From assembly GCA_041492115.1 (NCBI GenBank), contig JBGPWJ010000002.1:1-32478 (forward strand): a stretch of 32,478 nucleotides of DNA. Reading direction: 5' to 3'. The stretch is from Gammaproteobacteria bacterium. Lineage in GTDB: Bacteria > Pseudomonadota > Gammaproteobacteria > JBBQDK01. The translations under genes were made by a program, and so were the position numbers. Position 1 is the stretch's first letter. Every line of letters starts with the position of its first letter. Under the pieces are notes generated by a model. It was given only the letters and a program-made list of their open reading frames with translations, had not been told where the DNA came from and searched no databases. Below are positions 23,181 through 31,013 of this stretch, in pieces.

Positions 23181-23422
23181 ATATACAGCCTTTCCTTTAC
23201 GGATGGCGCGCAATCAGATTACAGCAGCGCAACTATACTTCAAAAGGAATTTAGTGATTCAACCATTCTGTAATAGGGCTGCCAATTGAATGGCGGCTAT
23301 TGGCCTTGGGTTGTCTGTCAGATCCCCAGTTCGAGCACGCCATCAATGACCGAAGTTGAATGGGAAGCCGACACAGCGTATGCAGGCACTTCTGTCTCAA
23401 CCAGACCCAGGCTAATGGAATG

Positions 23423-23480
23423 GACCCGGAGCCGTCACTCGCGACGAGGCACTGAATTTCCAGAAAGCGGTCATTGACGG
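23423..23480 (+). repeat. Dispersed short repeat, copy A
   Basis: GACCCGGAGCCGTCACTCGCGACGAGGCACTGAATTTCCAGAAAGCGGTCATTGACGG aligns with 26262-26320 at about 45 of 58 positions by hand. Weaker similarity extends upstream to about 23286. Confidence 0.55.
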
Positions 23481-23727
23481 ATTTATGGATACTGGCAATT
23501 CAACAAGGAATGCGACCATGAGGTCATTAGGACCGCGAGTATGTGGTGATTACACTTATCCCGCTGTTCAGATTTCCGGGGCCGGCTCTTCGCAGCTTGG
23601 CTCGATCGTCTTCAGAAAAACCTTTAACCATTCTGTATTTAGTTCCTATTGATTATTGTCAATGAATCATTAGGCGCGCTATGGCATATGTACGCATACC
23701 TTTTTCAGGCATGCAGCATTGTTCAGG

Positions 23728-23847
23728 TCAACATCCAACATTGAGGATCTGTTAGATAACCACCGGATTATCAATGCAGGCTATCTCCTTCATCACAACG
23801 CCGCAGTGACTGCACGTTTCAATGTCGAGATTTTAGCCAAGGAGGTG
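23728..23847 (-). pseudogene. Remnant of the C-terminal end of an IS91-family-like transposase (two in-frame stops)
   Basis: The minus-strand frame reads HLLG*NLDIETCSHCGVVMKEIACIDNPVVI*QILNVGC*. This resembles the conserved tail ..LLKRVF.ID...CP.CGG..K.IA.I..P.VI.KIL.HLGL that I recall from IS91-type transposases. No upstream transposase body remains. Confidence 0.45.
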
Positions 23848-24027
23848 ATTCTTTCACGATTATCCTTTGCTTGAAACCGATAATTATCATGCGTCGCCGT
23901 TCTCAAGGATAGATGAGACGACAGCAAGGAAATATCTCGTCGTGAAGTTATTTGTAACCTTTCTTCGTTGCCTCGTCTAAATATAAATTGCAGTAATAAT
24001 TAGTTTTACTTATGGAGTACACATACC

Positions 24028-25764
24028 ATGCGCAGGAACACGTATCTCAAGGCAATGCTGGCTCTCACTCTTTTAATCGGCTCACTGTCGCTTCTTTCTG
24101 GTTGCGGAGGCGGCGCCGGTGGCAGTGCGACAACTCCTGCTACAAGTGGCGGAATGATCAGCGGTACGGCGGTCAAGGGACCGGTTAGTGGAGGGACGGT
24201 AACGGTATTTGCCGTCACTAACGGGACCATAGGCACCCAACTGGCTAGCGGAACGACGGACTCACAGGGCAATTTTCATATTTCGATCGGCACCTATTCA
24301 GGTCCGGTAATGCTGCAATTGAGTGGCGGAACGTTCATGGATGAAGCAACCGGTGCAACAAAAACCCTGTCTCCCGGCGATGTGATGACTGCGGTCACGC
24401 CCCCGGTCACGAGCGGCGCAACCGTAACCAACATTCAGGTAACACCGCTCACCTCCATGGCCCAAGCCATGGCTAGCAACATGGCGGGTGGCATGACCGG
24501 AACGAACATCGCTGCGGCGAACACGTCCGTGGGCAATTACTTTATGGTGAACGACATCCTGCATACGCAGCCCATGAACCCGCTGACATCCGGTTCGAGC
24601 GGCACGGCAACCCAGGATATGGAAAACTACGGGATGGCCATAGCGGCCATGTCTCAGTCGGCAAAGGACATGGGAATGACCTCCTCGTCCAGCATGGTCA
24701 CCGCCATGATGAACGACGCATCGGACGGCGTCATGAACGGCATGATGGGAAATTCGCCGGTCGTGATGGGCGGGATGATGGCCGGCAGTTCCATGATGAC
24801 CACAACGGCGGGAACGAGTGGACTTGCGATGGAAATGGCGACCTTCATCTCGTCCCCCATGAATAAATCAGGGGTGACCGCGCAGGACATGCAGGCACTC
24901 ATGAGCCAGTTGACTGCCTCGTCGACTGGTACCATTCAGAATGGAGGAGGAACACCGGTAAACGGGATGGTCAGTGGTTCGGTATTCAACGGAACGATGA
25001 ACAACACGACGGTCATGGCCTACGCGGTGACTGGCGGAACGATGGGTGCGCAGCTGGCCAGCGGACCCACGAACAGTGTGGGCAGCTTCAGCCTGTCCCT
25101 CGGTGCCTATTCCGGTCCTGTCATGCTCAAGATGCTCGGCGGTTCGTATGATGACTTGGCAACCAGCACGACCATGACCATGTTAACAGGCGATGTTATG
25201 ACCGCCGTCGTTCCGAGCATTGCGAACGGAGCCACGGTAACGGGCATTGAGATGACACCCCTTACGTCCATGGCCCAGGCACGGGCCCAGGTAATGACGG
25301 GCGGCATGACAGATGCCAACATCACAGCAGCCAACACGGCGGTGGGTAATTACTTCATGGTCTCCGACATCCTCCATACAGCACCGATGAACGCGGCCGT
25401 ATCTGGATCCGGCAGCACTGCAACTACGAGCATGAAGAACTACGGCATAACGATTGCCGCCATGTCTCAGTACGCGCTTACCATCAGCATGACCGATCCG
25501 GCGGCGCTGATCACGGACATGATGCAGGATGCATCCGACGGTATCATGAACGGCAAGATGGGTGGCACGTCTATCACCATGGCCGGCATGGGCGGTGGAA
25601 TGATGGGCGGTGGCGGCACCATGATGCAGTCCACGGCTGGTACGAGCGGGCTGGCGACAGCGATGGCAACGTTTATGGGGTCAGCAATGAACAAATCAGG
25701 ACTTATGGCTACCGACATGCAATTGCTCATGAGCCAGTTGAGTTCATCCAACGGACCTATTTGA
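24028..25764 (+). CDS. Met-rich, internally duplicated lipoprotein of unknown function
   Basis: Has a signal peptide plus lipobox (SLSLLSG|C) and GGAG upstream of the ATG. It is 578 aa, of which I counted 67 Met. Two halves of about 260 aa align end to end. Confidence 0.8.
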   Translation: MRRNTYLKAMLALTLLIGSLSLLSGCGGGAGGSATTPATSGGMISGTAVKGPVSGGTVTVFAVTNGTIGTQLASGTTDSQGNFHISIGTYSGPVMLQLSGGTFMDEATGATKTLSPGDVMTAVTPPVTSGATVTNIQVTPLTSMAQAMASNMAGGMTGTNIAAANTSVGNYFMVNDILHTQPMNPLTSGSSGTATQDMENYGMAIAAMSQSAKDMGMTSSSSMVTAMMNDASDGVMNGMMGNSPVVMGGMMAGSSMMTTTAGTSGLAMEMATFISSPMNKSGVTAQDMQALMSQLTASSTGTIQNGGGTPVNGMVSGSVFNGTMNNTTVMAYAVTGGTMGAQLASGPTNSVGSFSLSLGAYSGPVMLKMLGGSYDDLATSTTMTMLTGDVMTAVVPSIANGATVTGIEMTPLTSMAQARAQVMTGGMTDANITAANTAVGNYFMVSDILHTAPMNAAVSGSGSTATTSMKNYGITIAAMSQYALTISMTDPAALITDMMQDASDGIMNGKMGGTSITMAGMGGGMMGGGGTMMQSTAGTSGLATAMATFMGSAMNKSGLMATDMQLLMSQLSSSNGPI

Positions 25765-26685: not shown

Positions 26686-27081
26686 ATGTACAAACCGAGA
26701 TGGTGGTCGGCATTATTGTTGGGAATGTTCCTGGTGGGCATGAGCGGCGTGTCCATGGGGGACCGCGGGCACGGCGGGCACGGCGGGCATGGTCATGTGG
26801 GCGTCGGAATTATCGTCGACCCCTTCTGGTTTGGTCCCGGGTATTACCCCAGTCCTTACTACTATCCTCCCTATTACTATCCCCCATCGGTGGTGACGGT
26901 TCCTGACAGCCCCACGGAATACATTGAGCGCGAGGACAGTGTGGCGCCAGCGCCCCAGGCGTCAGCTTACTGGTATTACTGCGCCGATCCGCAAGGCTAT
27001 TACCCCTATGTGAAGCAGTGCCCGGGAGGCTGGCAGGCCGTCGCCCCACAGCCAGACACCGTGCCGCGCGAGGAGAGATAA
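26686..27081 (+). CDS. Small secreted protein with an HGG repeat, a Tyr/Pro-rich segment and a C-terminal YWYYC..P.GYYPYV..CP.GW motif
   Basis: The ATG at 26686 has AAGGAGG at 26674-26680. The signal peptide is WWSALLLGMFLVGMSGVSMG. The longer ORF-track start at 26548 lacks an RBS. Confidence 0.7.
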   Translation: MYKPRWWSALLLGMFLVGMSGVSMGDRGHGGHGGHGHVGVGIIVDPFWFGPGYYPSPYYYPPYYYPPSVVTVPDSPTEYIEREDSVAPAPQASAYWYYCADPQGYYPYVKQCPGGWQAVAPQPDTVPREER

Positions 27082-27083
27082 AC

Positions 27084-27623
27084 GTGAACCTATCGACAAA
27101 GATTTCAGCGCTTGCCTTGCCGTTGCTGATCGCCGCCTGCGTCACGATGCCGAGCGGCCCCAGCATGATGGTGTTGCCTGGTACCGGGAAGAGCTTCGAC
27201 CAATTTCACGCCGATGATATGGAATGCCGGCACTACGCCCTCGAAAGCGTTGGCGGCGTAACGCCCAGCCAGGCTGCCAGCGATAGCGGGGTGAAGAGTG
27301 CCGTGGTCGGCACGCTGGTGGGCGCTGCTGCGGGTGCAGCCATCGGTGGGCACGAAGGTGCTGGGGTGGGTGCTGGCACCGGACTCCTGGTGGGCGGTCT
27401 GGCAGGAACTGAATCCGCGCAGGCCTCGGGTTACGGCGTGCAACGCCGTTATGACATCGGCTACGTACAGTGCATGTACGCCAAAGGCCACAAGGTTCCC
27501 GTTTCCGGCCGTACCTACAGGCAATCACGCCCGGCATCCTACCCGCCACCGCCGCCCCCCGGCATACCGCGTCCCCCGGCAGGAACACCGCCTCCTCCTC
27601 CCCCCGACGTATCTTCGCCTTAG
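27084..27623 (+). CDS. Glycine-zipper lipoprotein with a poly-proline C-terminal tail
   Basis: The GTG at 27084 has AGGAGAG at 27071-27077. Features are the lipobox LLIAA|C, the Gly zipper GTLVGAAAGAAIGGHEGAGVGAGTGLLVGGLAG, the conserved RRYDIGYVQCMYAKGHKVP, and the tail PPPPPPGIPRPPAGTPPPPPP. Confidence 0.7.
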   Translation: MNLSTKISALALPLLIAACVTMPSGPSMMVLPGTGKSFDQFHADDMECRHYALESVGGVTPSQAASDSGVKSAVVGTLVGAAAGAAIGGHEGAGVGAGTGLLVGGLAGTESAQASGYGVQRRYDIGYVQCMYAKGHKVPVSGRTYRQSRPASYPPPPPPGIPRPPAGTPPPPPPDVSSP

Positions 27624-28558: not shown

Positions 28559-28788
28559 TCCTGCGCAGCACTTTCGAATGGATCATAGGAAGCTTCATGC
28601 GCTATCAGGTCGTGCCGCGGCACTCCACAACGGCGTAATAACTGTTAACATGTCGCGCAGAAAGGCAATACGCTGATCCTGCCCGGCAACCTCGCCGACC
28701 TTGGCGGCATGATCGCCACGGCCATGAGTGTGGTGAAGACCCAGGGCGCGGTGCAAAGATAATCGCGTTCCGCGCAGTGGACAGGACA

Positions 28789-30054
28789 ATGAACGGGAGA
28801 GGTGTGCGGGGATTGGTTGTGCTGCTGCTGTGCCTGCTGAGCAAGGCGCTGTGGGCGGTGCAGCCCGAGACGCAGGAGGTGTTCGACCGCTACAAGGACA
28901 GTATCGTCCAGATCCGCATCCTCGAAGCATCGACCGGCGCGCGGGCGGTACTGGGTTCCGGTTTTCTGGTCAGCGACGACGGCCGCATCGTCACCAACTA
29001 CCACGTCATCTCCGATCTGATTCAAAAGCCCGGTCAGTACCGCGCCGAGATCGTGCACCCGAACGGCAAGATCGGCGCGCTGCGCGTGCTCAACTTCGAT
29101 GTTGTGCATGATCTCGCGCTGGTGCGCACCGATGTGGCGGTGTCCAATCATCTCGGTCTGAACAGTGGGCCGATCATGAAGGGGTTCCGTGTGTATGCGC
29201 TCGGCTCGCCGCTGGATCTGGGCATGACCATCGTTGAAGGCACCTACAGCGGCCTGCTTCAGGAATCACTGTACGAGAAGATTCATTTCACCGGCTCCAT
29301 CAACGCGGGCATGAGCGGCGGTCCGGCCCTGCTGGCGGACGGCAGAGTCATCGGCGTGAATGTCGCCACTGCCGGCAATCAGGTCAGCTTCCTGGTGCCG
29401 GCGGCGTATGTGAGCAAGCTGATCGAAGGCACACCGGCCGATACGCACGCCGCGCCCGGATTGGCGCAGGTCCGCGCGGAGTTGCTGCGCAATCAGGACA
29501 GCTACATGTCGCGGCTGCTGGCCGCGCCGCTGCCGACCGCCGTCATGGGGCATTACCGCGTGCCGGGCAAGATCGGGCCCTACATCAAGTGCTGGGGCGA
29601 TTCCAACCGCCAGCATGACAACCTGTTCGTGACGGTCATCCAGCAGTGCGCCACGGATGATGATCTCTATCTTTCGCGTACCCAGAATACCGGCATTGTC
29701 AGTTACAAATATGATCTGATCAGTTCCGATCAGCTCAACCGCTTCCGCTTCTACATGCTCTACGAAAAATATTTCAGCAAGCCCTACAATCCCATCATGG
29801 CGGGTAAGGAAGACGTCAGCAAATACCTCTGTCACACCGACTTCGTCGCCAACAAGGGCGTTCGGCTCAAGGCTGTGCTGTGTCTGCGCCGCTATCTGAA
29901 AATGGACGGCCTGTACGACGTCGAACTCAAGGTGGCGACGCTCGACAGCAACACGGAAGGTCTGCAGGCTTCCGTTGCGCTGGCCGGCGTCAGTTTCGAC
30001 AACGCCCTGCGCTTCACACGCGCCTATCTGGATGCCATCGCATGGACGAACTGA
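28789..30054 (+). CDS. Secreted trypsin-like serine protease (S1 fold) with a C-terminal domain of about 200 aa of unknown type
   Basis: Has a signal peptide (LVVLLLCLLSKALWA). The catalytic triad contexts are TNYHV (His), HDLALV (Asp) and GMSGGP (Ser). No PDZ domain is recognisable. The C-terminal part contains 4 Cys. The ATG at 28789 is preferred over the GTG at 28777. Confidence 0.85.
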   Translation: MNGRGVRGLVVLLLCLLSKALWAVQPETQEVFDRYKDSIVQIRILEASTGARAVLGSGFLVSDDGRIVTNYHVISDLIQKPGQYRAEIVHPNGKIGALRVLNFDVVHDLALVRTDVAVSNHLGLNSGPIMKGFRVYALGSPLDLGMTIVEGTYSGLLQESLYEKIHFTGSINAGMSGGPALLADGRVIGVNVATAGNQVSFLVPAAYVSKLIEGTPADTHAAPGLAQVRAELLRNQDSYMSRLLAAPLPTAVMGHYRVPGKIGPYIKCWGDSNRQHDNLFVTVIQQCATDDDLYLSRTQNTGIVSYKYDLISSDQLNRFRFYMLYEKYFSKPYNPIMAGKEDVSKYLCHTDFVANKGVRLKAVLCLRRYLKMDGLYDVELKVATLDSNTEGLQASVALAGVSFDNALRFTRAYLDAIAWTN

Positions 30055-31013
30055 TCGTCGTCGAGGTGCTCGATCGCGCCGGCCGGGTGACCGAGCGGGT
30101 CCGTCTTACGTCGTTCCCGGCCTGCATCGGCCGCGCCTATGACTGCGCCGTCATCATCGATGACCTGTATGTCTCGCCGCACCATCTGGCCATCGAACGC
30201 GATGCCGAGGGAAAGTTGTGCGTGGTCGATACGCAGAGTGACAACGGCATCTATCTGTCGGCCGACGGTCGGCGCGTCGCGCGTACTGCGCTGGCAGACG
30301 AAACAGGCTTGCGCATCGGCCATACGCAGCTGCGCCTGCGCCGCGCCGGTTACGCCGTGACCATGACGCTGATCGATCAGCGCAACGGCGACGCGAGCGG
30401 CCGTTCCATCAATCGCGGTCGGGTCCTCGCGGCACTGCTGCTGGTGAGCGCCGTCGCCCTGTTCGTGCAGATGAGCTGGAATACCTACACGCAACCAAAG
30501 CCGGCACAGCTGCTGTTCTATGTGTTCGTGACGATCATCATGGTGCTGACATGGGCCGGCGGCTGGGCCCTAGCGAGTCGCGTATTCGCGCACCGCCCGG
30601 CCTTCTTCGCGCATGGCGTGATCGCCACACTGGCGCTGCTGGCGTGGATGGTCTACGACATTCTCCTCGAATACTACCGATTCGCGCTGGCGGCGGAACT
30701 GTCGGCGGATATTCTCAATTACGCCGGCGCGTTCGCGCTGTTGTCGGCACTGTTCGCCGCGCATCTGCGTTTCAGTTCGGCGCACCGGCCGCGCCCGCGT
30801 CTGCTGATAAGCAGTGCGATTGCCGGCATCCTGATCGGCCTGGGTCTGCTGACGCATTATGTCGCCGGCATGGAATTCACGGCGCTGCCGGAATTCGATG
30901 GCATATTGAAACCACCGGCCTTCAGAATCAGTTCCAGCCACAACCTGGACCGCTTCTTCACCGACGCGCGGGAACTGCAGAGCATGCTCGCGCAGCTCAA
31001 GGCAGACGATTAG
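30042..31013 (+). CDS. FHA-domain protein with about 5 C-terminal TM helices
   Basis: The start MDELIVVEVLDRAGRV overlaps the protease stop by 13 nt (ATGGACGAACTGA). The FHA core reads FPACIGRAYDCAVIIDDLYVSPHHLAI...SDNGIYL. Hydrophobic helices run from about aa 125 onward. The 29880 start in the ORF track is an Arg-rich artefact inside the protease gene. Confidence 0.8.
   Translation: MDELIVVEVLDRAGRVTERVRLTSFPACIGRAYDCAVIIDDLYVSPHHLAIERDAEGKLCVVDTQSDNGIYLSADGRRVARTALADETGLRIGHTQLRLRRAGYAVTMTLIDQRNGDASGRSINRGRVLAALLLVSAVALFVQMSWNTYTQPKPAQLLFYVFVTIIMVLTWAGGWALASRVFAHRPAFFAHGVIATLALLAWMVYDILLEYYRFALAAELSADILNYAGAFALLSALFAAHLRFSSAHRPRPRLLISSAIAGILIGLGLLTHYVAGMEFTALPEFDGILKPPAFRISSSHNLDRFFTDARELQSMLAQLKADD

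Follow-up and report, generated by a model that had tools for sequence, protein, structure and literature searches.

We describe a methionine-rich lipoprotein encoded at positions 24028-25764 of a 32,478-nucleotide stretch of a gammaproteobacterial genome (GenBank assembly GCA_041492115.1, contig JBGPWJ010000002.1, positions 1 to 32,478 of the forward strand; the whole stretch is called the window below). Comparison with its relatives indicates that the methionine richness is a derived, clade-specific recoding of hydrophobic positions in an older structural module. As to function, we favour an envelope protein that binds or buffers Cu(I)/Ag(I), a reading to which we give about an even chance because of its association with copper and silver genes in several lineages, the chemistry of Met thioethers and the nature of the proteins that seem to be co-regulated with it. 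The gene and the predicted parts of its product are the following.

24028-25764, forward strand: open reading frame (ORF) of the Met-rich lipoprotein, 578 aa
24028-24105, forward strand: lipoprotein signal peptide (aa 1-25) and lipobox, from the translation
24094-24105, forward strand: lipobox L-S-G-C (aa 23-26); Cys26 is the predicted first mature residue, to be lipidated
24145-24441, forward strand: module 1, transthyretin/CarboxypepD_reg-like beta-sandwich (aa 40-138), from the AlphaFold (AF2) model, Foldseek and sub-threshold Pfam matches
24439-24933, forward strand: module 1, helical domain (aa 138-302), from the AF2 model
24553-24579, forward strand: module 1, DILHTQPMN motif, inside the helical domain
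24715-24822, forward strand: module 1, Gly/Met-rich segment (aa 230-265), inside the helical domain
24958-25254, forward strand: module 2, beta-sandwich (aa 311-409), from the internal repeat and the profile domain coordinates
25252-25761, forward strand: module 2, helical domain (aa 409-578), from the internal repeat
25528-25650, forward strand: module 2, Gly/Met-rich segment (aa 501-541), inside the helical domain

Our recount agrees with the composition given in the initial annotation of this gene: 67 of the 578 residues are Met (11.6%), the only Cys is Cys26, Trp is absent, there are 3 His and charged residues are few (D+E+K+R = 35, or 6.1%). Together, Gly, Thr, Met, Ala and Ser make up 63% of the protein. 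The mean Met content over the 13 Pfam-supported genes of the window is 2.46%; if Met occurred at a rate of 2.5%, a count of 67 or higher among 578 residues would have a binomial probability of approximately 8e-25. The runs of MM, MxM and MxxM that had been pointed out earlier do not exceed what is expected from composition (7, 3 and 4 occurrences, against 7.5 +/- 2.4 in shuffled sequences); the sole enriched spacing is MxxxM (14 against 7.4 +/- 2.4). The signal peptide and lipobox noted at that time are both found again: the N-terminus MRRNTYLKAMLALTLLIGSLSLLSGC has a positive n-region and a hydrophobic h-region, LSGC at aa 23-26 satisfies the pattern L-[AS]-[GA]-C, and the block LLIGSLSLL(F/S)GCGGG is kept across homologues. 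Cys26 is thereby a likely site of lipidation. A clear signal of horizontal transfer was not found, the GC content being 57.3% for the gene and 59.5% for the window, with GC at third codon positions near that of one neighbour.

As had been claimed, the two halves of the protein (aa 43-298 and aa 313-575) can be aligned over their full length, with 59% of residues identical (E = 4e-107). The duplication is old: the halves are only 64% identical in DNA (263 aligned codons) and 75 of their 156 identical residues are encoded by different codons. The sequence TPLTSMAQA, present at aa 139 and again at aa 410, has codons that differ at 5 of 9 positions. Met is shared in the same column by both halves at 24 positions, which bears out the proposal of an old duplication with Met kept in both copies.

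Neither Pfam nor NCBIfam contains a match above threshold for the lipoprotein, and no publication on the Met-rich family was found in the literature. A search of 5.8 billion clustered proteins, however, returned at least 873 homologues, all unnamed. The earlier statement that the protein belongs to no recognisable family consequently stands for Pfam, NCBIfam and the PDB, but has to be dropped otherwise since a very large unnamed family exists. Met accounts for 8.7-13.3% of residues in all 120 homologues listed out of the 873 or more. Two-module homologues have a length of ~580 aa and are 70-83% identical, three-module forms measure ~800-930 aa, and one-module homologues are seen in genome contigs. 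Carriers comprise Nitrospirota metagenome-assembled genomes (MAGs) from soil and sediment, several cultured Anaeromyxobacter species, Syntrophus-like MAGs, Gallionellaceae, Thiobacillaceae and many Burkholderiales (e.g. Polaromonas, Rhodoferax, Ramlibacter and Aquabacterium); in a plasmid collection only distant Met-poor relatives were found. Cultured carriers include Anaeromyxobacter oryzae Red232 (locus L027, at about 563.2-565.8 kb of NZ_AP025591.1), A. terrae SG22 and A. soli SG29. An alignment of 278 modules has 23 columns in which Met is conserved at 70% or more, and where Met is absent from these columns its place is taken by Ile, Leu or Val in 72% of cases.

A module profile (21 modules, 265 positions) was searched against 1.84 billion representative proteins and yielded 2954 relatives at E <= 1e-3, of which 1658 at E <= 1e-10; the window protein itself gives two full-length matches of 487 and 506 bits. 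Most of the relatives are lipoproteins that likewise begin with C-G-G-G, and their lengths run from about 300 to 2460 aa; in nine of the relatives, scanned with Pfam, the module is followed by fn3, Ig-like or InlB B-repeat domains. The Met-rich clade consists of one to three modules only, without C-terminal adhesin-like domains, and has a longer Gly/Met-rich segment. Modules of the Met-poor relatives hold 0-3.5% Met, and the overall distribution is bimodal: of the full-length modules of 150 listed representatives, 125 lie below 4%, 22 at 7-13% and none at 4-7%. On average Met makes up 10.2% of a module in the Met-rich clade against 1.2% in the Met-poor relatives. This gain of 9.0 percentage points is accompanied by a gain in Gly (4.1 points) and by losses of Leu (4.5), Glu (2.0), Asp (1.7), Val (1.4), Ile (1.3) and Phe (1.2). 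At the conserved Met columns the Met-poor relatives, when pooled, have Leu (32%), Ile (12%), Val (11%), Phe (7%) and Met (6%), and it is because of these residues that we consider the Met richness to be derived.

A false homology driven by composition was considered and rejected: the Met-rich profile picks up Met-poor proteins with E-values between 1e-30 and 1e-60, and both groups have the motifs TPLT..A, YG..A..S, DxSDGxxxG and N.SG in common, so the homology is real. The motif DxSDGxxxG, conserved family-wide, might be a calcium-binding loop. The initial annotation had regarded homologues of ordinary Met content as an argument against a function of the methionines; such proteins do exist among the distant relatives (~1% Met), but not in the close clade (8.7-13.3%). 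Judging from these sequences, the finding refines the idea of a Met function and does not refute it.

The AF2 model of module 1 (predicted local distance difference test score, pLDDT, 77; predicted template modelling score, pTM, 0.80) consists of a nine-strand beta-sandwich (pLDDT about 80-92) followed by a helical domain. When the whole module was compared with the PDB using Foldseek, only the sandwich was matched, by transthyretins and the beta domain of rhamnogalacturonan lyase (E ~1e-3; template modelling (TM) score ~0.45 for the transthyretins, normalised to the target). Pfam matches on the lipoprotein are all sub-threshold (TTR-52, with 15.2 bits against a cut-off of 24.9, and bMG3); PF13620 is precomputed for three homologues and was also found in one Met-poor relative. 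The beta-rich, Ig/CarboxypepD_reg-like start that had been ascribed to each half is accordingly recovered, by model and Foldseek, as a predicted transthyretin/CarboxypepD_reg-like sandwich.

Modelled alone, on an alignment taking in Met-poor relatives, the helical domain reaches a pLDDT of 94.7 and a pTM of 0.89, with six helices plus a short beta segment, and the Gly/Met-rich stretch is confidently placed and folded. The earlier picture of a loop-like Met/Gly/Ser-rich part does not survive this comparison: with the deeper alignment the whole domain is modelled as folded, including the Gly/Met segment, and most conserved Met sit at Leu/Ile/Val/Phe positions of the relatives. Foldseek gave no counterpart of this domain in the PDB (best E = 6, best TM-score 0.18), and a sequence profile search of the PDB found nothing beyond a chance-level match to colicin M (E = 0.36). 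Given the absence of a PDB match, the model represents a confidently predicted fold without a solved relative. The helical domain of the parent module, which likewise has no Pfam model or PDB relative, is present in ~2900 other proteins (e.g. P0134, P0151 and P0179).

It might be argued that the methionines have no specific function at all and are a neutral or nutritional peculiarity (a sulfur or Met reserve) of a structural surface lipoprotein. Changes from Leu, Ile or Val to Met are single-base changes that are structurally tolerated, and basing the alignment on Met-poor relatives leaves the confidence of the fold prediction unchanged. Nonetheless, we find this explanation hardly credible, as Met is kept at the same columns in both repeats despite 36% DNA divergence, the trait is kept across phyla and has a bimodal distribution without intermediates, Met is metabolically costly and the gene is presumably under stress-type regulation (see below). 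Drift would moreover not give a 10-fold enrichment while the neighbours stay at 2.5%.

Alternatively, the methionines could line a surface for a non-metal ligand, for instance in an envelope-stress chaperone or a carrier, whose clients might be unfolded proteins, lipids or other hydrophobic ligands. The flexibility of Met side chains would then give a plastic hydrophobic face, as in the M domain of SRP54 and in calmodulin, and the Met-poor relatives would do a related job. This would agree with the replacement of Leu/Ile/Val/Phe by Met at hydrophobic positions and with the MxxxM spacing, the only one enriched, which puts Met on one helix face; control by an extracytoplasmic function (ECF) sigma factor would also suit an envelope-stress function. 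In addition, the module heads thousands of surface-type lipoproteins fused to fn3, Ig or InlB-repeat domains, and its ancestral role was therefore probably structural or ligand-binding and not related to metals. Still, we consider such a surface very unlikely in the Met-rich clade: it leaves unexplained both the repeated linkage to cop/cus genes in many lineages and the co-regulated proteins with Met/His/Gly tails, no ligand can be proposed, and there is no structural relative to support a binding groove.

The linkage to copper and silver genes emerged from 72 non-redundant loci with a Met-rich member (the target gene), in which ORFs were called and neighbours were clustered. Counting copA, cusCBA, cusF, cusRS and multicopper oxidase genes, 15 of the 72 loci have a Cu/Ag homeostasis gene within 3 kb of the target; the number is 20 for a distance of 6 kb and 22 for 10 kb. 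Above their NCBIfam cut-offs, representative neighbours match the copper P-type ATPase (TIGR01511), CusA/CzcA (TIGR00914), the heavy-metal sensor kinase (TIGR01386) and the heavy-metal response regulator (TIGR01387); CusF (PF11604), multicopper oxidase (Cu-oxidase_2/_3) and a YHS protein are also above cut-off, whereas a CusB with a fused CusF-like domain and a CueO-like oxidase remain below the NCBIfam cut-offs. The linkage occurs in at least six lineages: Nitrospirota, Gallionellaceae, Thiobacillaceae, Comamonadaceae-type Burkholderiales, Anaeromyxobacter and deltaproteobacterial MAGs. The arrangements often look like operons, as can be seen from the following gene orders.

Locus L041: cusC-cusB-cusA-cusF-target-...-small Met-rich protein-copA
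Locus L053: target-x-cusCBA-x-copA
Locus L085: copA-x-DUF6502-target, the target overlapping a multicopper oxidase gene by 4 nt
Locus L076: DUF6502-target-x-multicopper oxidase-cusSR
Locus L042: DUF6502-target-YHS protein-small Met-rich protein-cusSR...copA
Loci L022 and L026: copA directly upstream of the target

Two further types of genes recur beside the target. A DUF6502 gene is located near it in nine betaproteobacterial loci, 42-44 bp upstream in six and at 29, 137 (divergent) and 949 bp in the remaining three. The DUF6502 protein contains a helix-turn-helix-like stretch, and no publication on DUF6502 was found in the literature. Small secreted proteins (100-190 aa, 14-26% Met) in which Met is combined with numerous charged residues are encoded beside the target in 8-9 loci. 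Those listed below measure 130-190 aa with 15-26% Met and some His, and often lie near copA; they have no match in Pfam or NCBIfam and are SilE/PcoE- or MrpX-like in style. Positions within the loci are listed here.

DUF6502 gene: L042, 8999-9841
DUF6502 gene: L058, 8996-9829
DUF6502 gene: L076, 8981-9814
DUF6502 gene: L085, 7945-8835
DUF6502 gene: also in L068, L069, L072, L015 and L053 (divergent)
Small Met-rich secreted protein: L018, 11900-12334
Small Met-rich secreted protein: L023, 8526-8951
Small Met-rich secreted protein: L026, 6200-6625
Small Met-rich secreted protein: L006, 3613-4047
Small Met-rich secreted protein: L014, 10034-10435
Small Met-rich secreted protein: L041, 11470-12051
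Small Met-rich secreted protein: L042, 11471-12007

A second line of evidence comes from the region in front of the gene. Among the Nitrospirota loci, conservation is striking over the 220 nt that precede the start codon, and the following elements were read from the corresponding part of the window.

23879-23888, forward strand: perfect 10-bp palindrome GATAATTATC
23953-23980, forward strand: putative ECF-sigma-type promoter, the only GTAACY-N13-18-CGTCT match in the window (0.06 expected by chance)
23953-23959, forward strand: -35 element TGTAACC, by motif
23974-23980, forward strand: -10 element CGTCTAA, by motif, after a 14-nt spacer
24014-24017, forward strand: Shine-Dalgarno-like GGAG, 10 nt before the ATG

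At least 17 Nitrospirota loci have the promoter motif 50-75 nt before the start codon of the orthologue (the spacer in the window being 1 nt shorter than in the other loci), and the motif also precedes the adjacent ECF sigma gene in L014, L020, L064 and L066, so that ECF-dependent transcription of the Met-rich gene seems plausible. The block ATGGAGGA around the Shine-Dalgarno-like site is conserved in orthologue loci as well. The palindrome GATAATTATC, ~150 nt before the start codon and ~65 nt before the ECF -35 element, is kept in most Nitrospirota orthologue loci and might bind a second regulator. An ECF sigma gene is present within ~1.7 kb of the target in 9 loci, in 8 of them with an anti-sigma-like gene alongside. 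The sigma factor is of the generic ECF kind, as even the best match, a SigW-like one, does not reach the cut-off. The anti-sigma factor crosses the membrane once, has a CBM48-like domain in the periplasm and gives no DUF1109 match. A scan of the window showed no ECF sigma gene of the type adjoining the target in other loci. Scans for sigma-70 promoters and terminators gave no more sites than in shuffled sequences.

The same motif precedes three genes whose products have an N-terminal signal-like hydrophobic stretch (in L019, L020 and L039) as well as a small His/Met/Gly-repeat protein in L014. The c33-type proteins of L019 and L020 end in Met/Gly/His tails such as GHGMGMGRGMGM, the copy in L039 has no tail, and a protein encoded in the adjacent ECF operon ends in MDHGGMGMDHGSGMGPGMGG. 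Overall, most secreted proteins near the ECF sigma gene end in Met/Gly/His-rich tails (e.g. GHGMGMGRGMGM, MDHGGMGMDHGSGMGPGMGG and GGMMDGQGSGGMGGSGSGMGGMGG), which suggests a regulon made of Met-rich envelope proteins. Such tails resemble the Met/His repeats of CopA/CopB of Pseudomonas syringae.

Secreted protein directly behind TGTAACC-N15-CGTCT: L020, 8670-9170, reverse strand
Secreted protein directly behind TGTAACC-N15-CGTCT: L019, 11914-12447
Secreted protein directly behind TGTAACC-N15-CGTCT: L039, 1607-2038, reverse strand
Further secreted protein near an ECF sigma gene: L020, 14365-15057
Further secreted protein near an ECF sigma gene: L084, 13520-14455

It is this promoter that keeps the main rival explanation alive, namely that the lipoprotein is a sacrificial oxidant sink. 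Its Met residues would scavenge hypochlorous acid, chloramines, peroxynitrite or copper-generated oxidants in the envelope, and the Met sulfoxide formed would perhaps be reduced again by methionine sulfoxide reductases (Msr), as for MrpX of Azospira and BcrX of Brucella, two small periplasmic peptides controlled by SigF/BcrS. The BcrS-dependent promoters of bcrX and bcrS have a -35 element, TGTAACC, that is identical to the one observed here. The ECF sigma genes near the target in 9 loci (with their anti-sigma-like partner in 8) fit this explanation too, and the small secreted proteins in 8-9 loci pair many Met with many charges, like MrpX. Even the copper linkage is compatible with it, because copper stress oxidises periplasmic Met: the two are linked in Escherichia coli according to PMC9302797.

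Several observations nonetheless make an oxidant sink unlikely. The Msr-recycled sink proposed in the initial annotation finds little support in the gene neighbourhoods, as MsrA/MsrB is encoded in only 1 of the 72 loci, 5 kb from the target (tblastn, with query sequences validated by their matches), and MsrP was matched in none of 86 loci plus the window (tblastn, with a query for which there was no validating positive match). The anti-sigma factor is of the CBM48-like single-pass type and not of the NrsF/DUF1109 type, and the -10 element CGTCTAA is unlike the GCGAA of SigF/BcrS-type promoters (GTAACC-N16-CGAA). Finally, the protein is large, folded and only 6% charged, unlike MrpX, and a bulk scavenger has no need for 23 position-specific conserved Met per module.

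Returning to Cu(I)/Ag(I) binding, Met thioethers are the usual ligands of these ions in the periplasm, as in CusF, CopC, CusB and the CueO insert. In the mechanism that we favour, the lipoprotein would be exported by Sec and lipidated at Cys26. It consists of two tandem modules, each predicted to be a transthyretin-like sandwich followed by a six-helix domain. About 23 positions per module have turned from Leu/Ile/Val/Phe into Met, together with a lengthening of the Gly/Met-rich segment. The resulting thioether clusters would bind soft monovalent ions (Cu(I), Ag(I) or both), either in the periplasm or on the surface of the cell. By buffering or sequestering these ions, the protein would complement CopA, CusCBA/CusF and multicopper oxidases. 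In the Nitrospirota lineage, which the window copy joins by similarity, the gene would be transcribed from the ECF-sigma promoter as part of a small envelope-stress regulon with other Met/Gly/His-rich secreted proteins. Both the metal binding and the physiological role are what we infer from these data.

A number of observations weigh against this proposal. The Cu(I)/Ag(I) ligand role already suggested in the initial annotation gains from the context in other genomes (a Cu/Ag gene within 6 kb in 20 of 72 loci), but not from the window, which has no copper gene within 8 kb of the ORF and where the adjoining P-type ATPase is P2-type and not copper-type. The window is among 50 of the 72 loci with no Cu/Ag gene within 10 kb. 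The background to which the linkage is compared, ~1% of a typical genome lying within 6 kb of Cu/Ag genes, is an estimate and not a measurement; none of 9 control loci has a copper gene, though these span at most 8 kb each and matched the Met-poor-type motif only, with membership unconfirmed. A search for CusR/HprR boxes upstream of the gene in proteobacterial loci gave two distant matches and none directly upstream. Within the protein, MxM and MxxM are depleted relative to shuffled sequence, His is scarce and the sole clade-enriched His (aa 179) is conserved in just 36-68%. Most conserved Met are at positions that are hydrophobic, and presumably buried, in the relatives, and buried Met of a folded protein may not be free to bind metal. 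A bolder version of Cu(I)/Ag(I) binding would turn the latter point around: the recoded interior of a new helical fold could serve as a high-capacity store, with many ions held in thioether clusters within or between domains. This would make it a Met counterpart of the Cys-lined Csp proteins, placed on the membrane under an ECF envelope-stress regulon that is Met-rich throughout; we think this version quite unlikely.

In the window, the Met-rich gene is separated from a divergent gene for a P2-type cation ATPase (Cation_ATPase_N/C) by a gap without a credible gene.

23214-24027: 815-bp gap, 45% GC against 59% for the window, flanked by the genes for the divergent P2-type ATPase and the Met-rich lipoprotein

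Scanning the window for Rfam families and tRNAs gave nothing, and no riboswitch was found in this gap. Beyond the ATPase, genes for CysK, VirJ and Ppx follow, and downstream of the Met-rich gene there are genes for small secreted proteins, a VTT-domain protein, a trypsin-like protease and an FHA protein. The best matches of the SelO gene of the window are divided between Gallionella (68%) and Nitrospira/Nitrospirota (62-64%). Compared with its closest relatives, the window shows no synteny beyond the gene and its promoter. A P2-type ATPase is also a neighbour in L064 and L066, but these ATPases are only 33-35% identical to the one in the window and the shared adjacency is therefore probably coincidental. 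Three features of the downstream region are the following.

26686-27081, forward strand: predicted secreted protein in which the signal peptide is followed by GHGGHGGHGH, the middle is rich in Tyr and Pro (YYPSPYYYPPYYYPP) and the C-terminus has the motif YWYYC...YYPYVKQCPGGW; no match in Pfam or NCBIfam
27018-27623, forward strand: protein of the glycine-zipper type (YMGG-like), in which LIAAC resembles a lipobox and the C-terminal tail, PPPPPPGIPRPPAGTPPPPPPD, is rich in proline
28777-31013, forward strand: trypsin-like serine protease gene overlapping the start of an FHA-domain gene (Pfam FHA, Yop-YscD_cpl)

The His/Gly run of the first protein could bind metal, and the protease and the FHA protein are a possible signalling pair.

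Should Cu(I)/Ag(I) binding hold, a widespread and unannotated component would be added to bacterial copper and silver resistance, and cus/cop clusters would gain a lipid-anchored partner that is now annotated as 'hypothetical'. The carriers are environmentally important, as they include Nitrospirota of soil and sediment, iron-oxidising Gallionellaceae, Thiobacillaceae, Anaeromyxobacter and many Burkholderiales. The origin of the trait is unusual, in that Met rose ten-fold through replacement of core-type Leu/Ile/Val/Phe in a conserved fold. This offers a natural experiment on how far Met can substitute for aliphatic residues and on how a structural module may come to handle metals or oxidants. 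The parent module also deserves structural work, with thousands of members, a confident AlphaFold model and a helical domain without Pfam model or PDB relative, and the ECF motif delimits a small, testable regulon of Met-rich envelope proteins in uncultured Nitrospirota.

Of the known systems, CusF, CopC and PcoC are similar in being exported, in using Met thioether ligands and in being encoded in cus/cop clusters; in L041 the target even directly follows a cusF homologue. They are, however, small single beta-barrels with one or two sites of 2-4 Met plus His or Trp, and have no sequence or fold relationship to the present lipoprotein, which with 578 aa and 67 Met has almost no His, no Trp and a helical Met-rich domain. 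A Pfam match to CusF (PF11604) is absent even at E <= 10, and there is no Trp for a Met2-His-Trp site. SilE and PcoE share the high Met content, the multiple potential sites, the envelope location, the stress induction and the position as accessory genes of Cu/Ag clusters. They are intrinsically disordered and charged proteins of ~140 aa with HxxM/MxxH motifs, whereas the lipoprotein is predicted to be folded (pLDDT 77-95), presumably lipid-anchored, nearly uncharged and poor in His. The small neighbours with 14-26% Met in related loci are nearer to SilE/PcoE than the lipoprotein is.

MrpX and BcrX are likewise Met-rich and exported, with an ECF promoter that has the TGTAACC -35 element and an adjoining ECF sigma/anti-sigma pair. 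MrpX is a small soluble protein in which Met makes up 20% and charged residues 44%, and it is encoded in an operon with yedYZ/msrPQ; the lipoprotein differs from both in being large and folded, with 11.6% Met and 6.1% charged residues, in having no linked msrPQ, and in the type of its anti-sigma factor and -10 element. The Gly/Met segments MGGMMAGSSMM and MAGMGGGMMGGGGTMM resemble the Cu(I)-binding loops in the Met-rich inserts of CueO and of PcoA/CopA (Pseudomonas), and the 4-nt overlap in L085 ties the target to a multicopper oxidase gene; with only 3 His and no Cu-oxidase Pfam match, the lipoprotein is nonetheless not a cupredoxin-fold enzyme. Csp1 and Csp3 offer a conceptual parallel only, in that core-facing positions of a helical domain are filled by a metal-ligating residue, perhaps for many Cu(I). 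They are Cys-lined four-helix bundles, while the Met-rich protein has no Cys available in its mature domains, is not a simple four-helix bundle and shows no homology to them, and multi-ion storage by analogy with Csp is speculation. True homology exists to the unnamed lipoprotein modules of sandwich plus helical domain that head fn3, Ig and InlB proteins (E 1e-30 to 1e-60), which have the same lipobox followed by a Gly-rich linker. Overall, Met-rich periplasmic proteins that handle metals are already known; the present family is a new and unannotated one among them, unrelated in sequence and fold to CusF, CopC, SilE/PcoE, MrpX and Csp.

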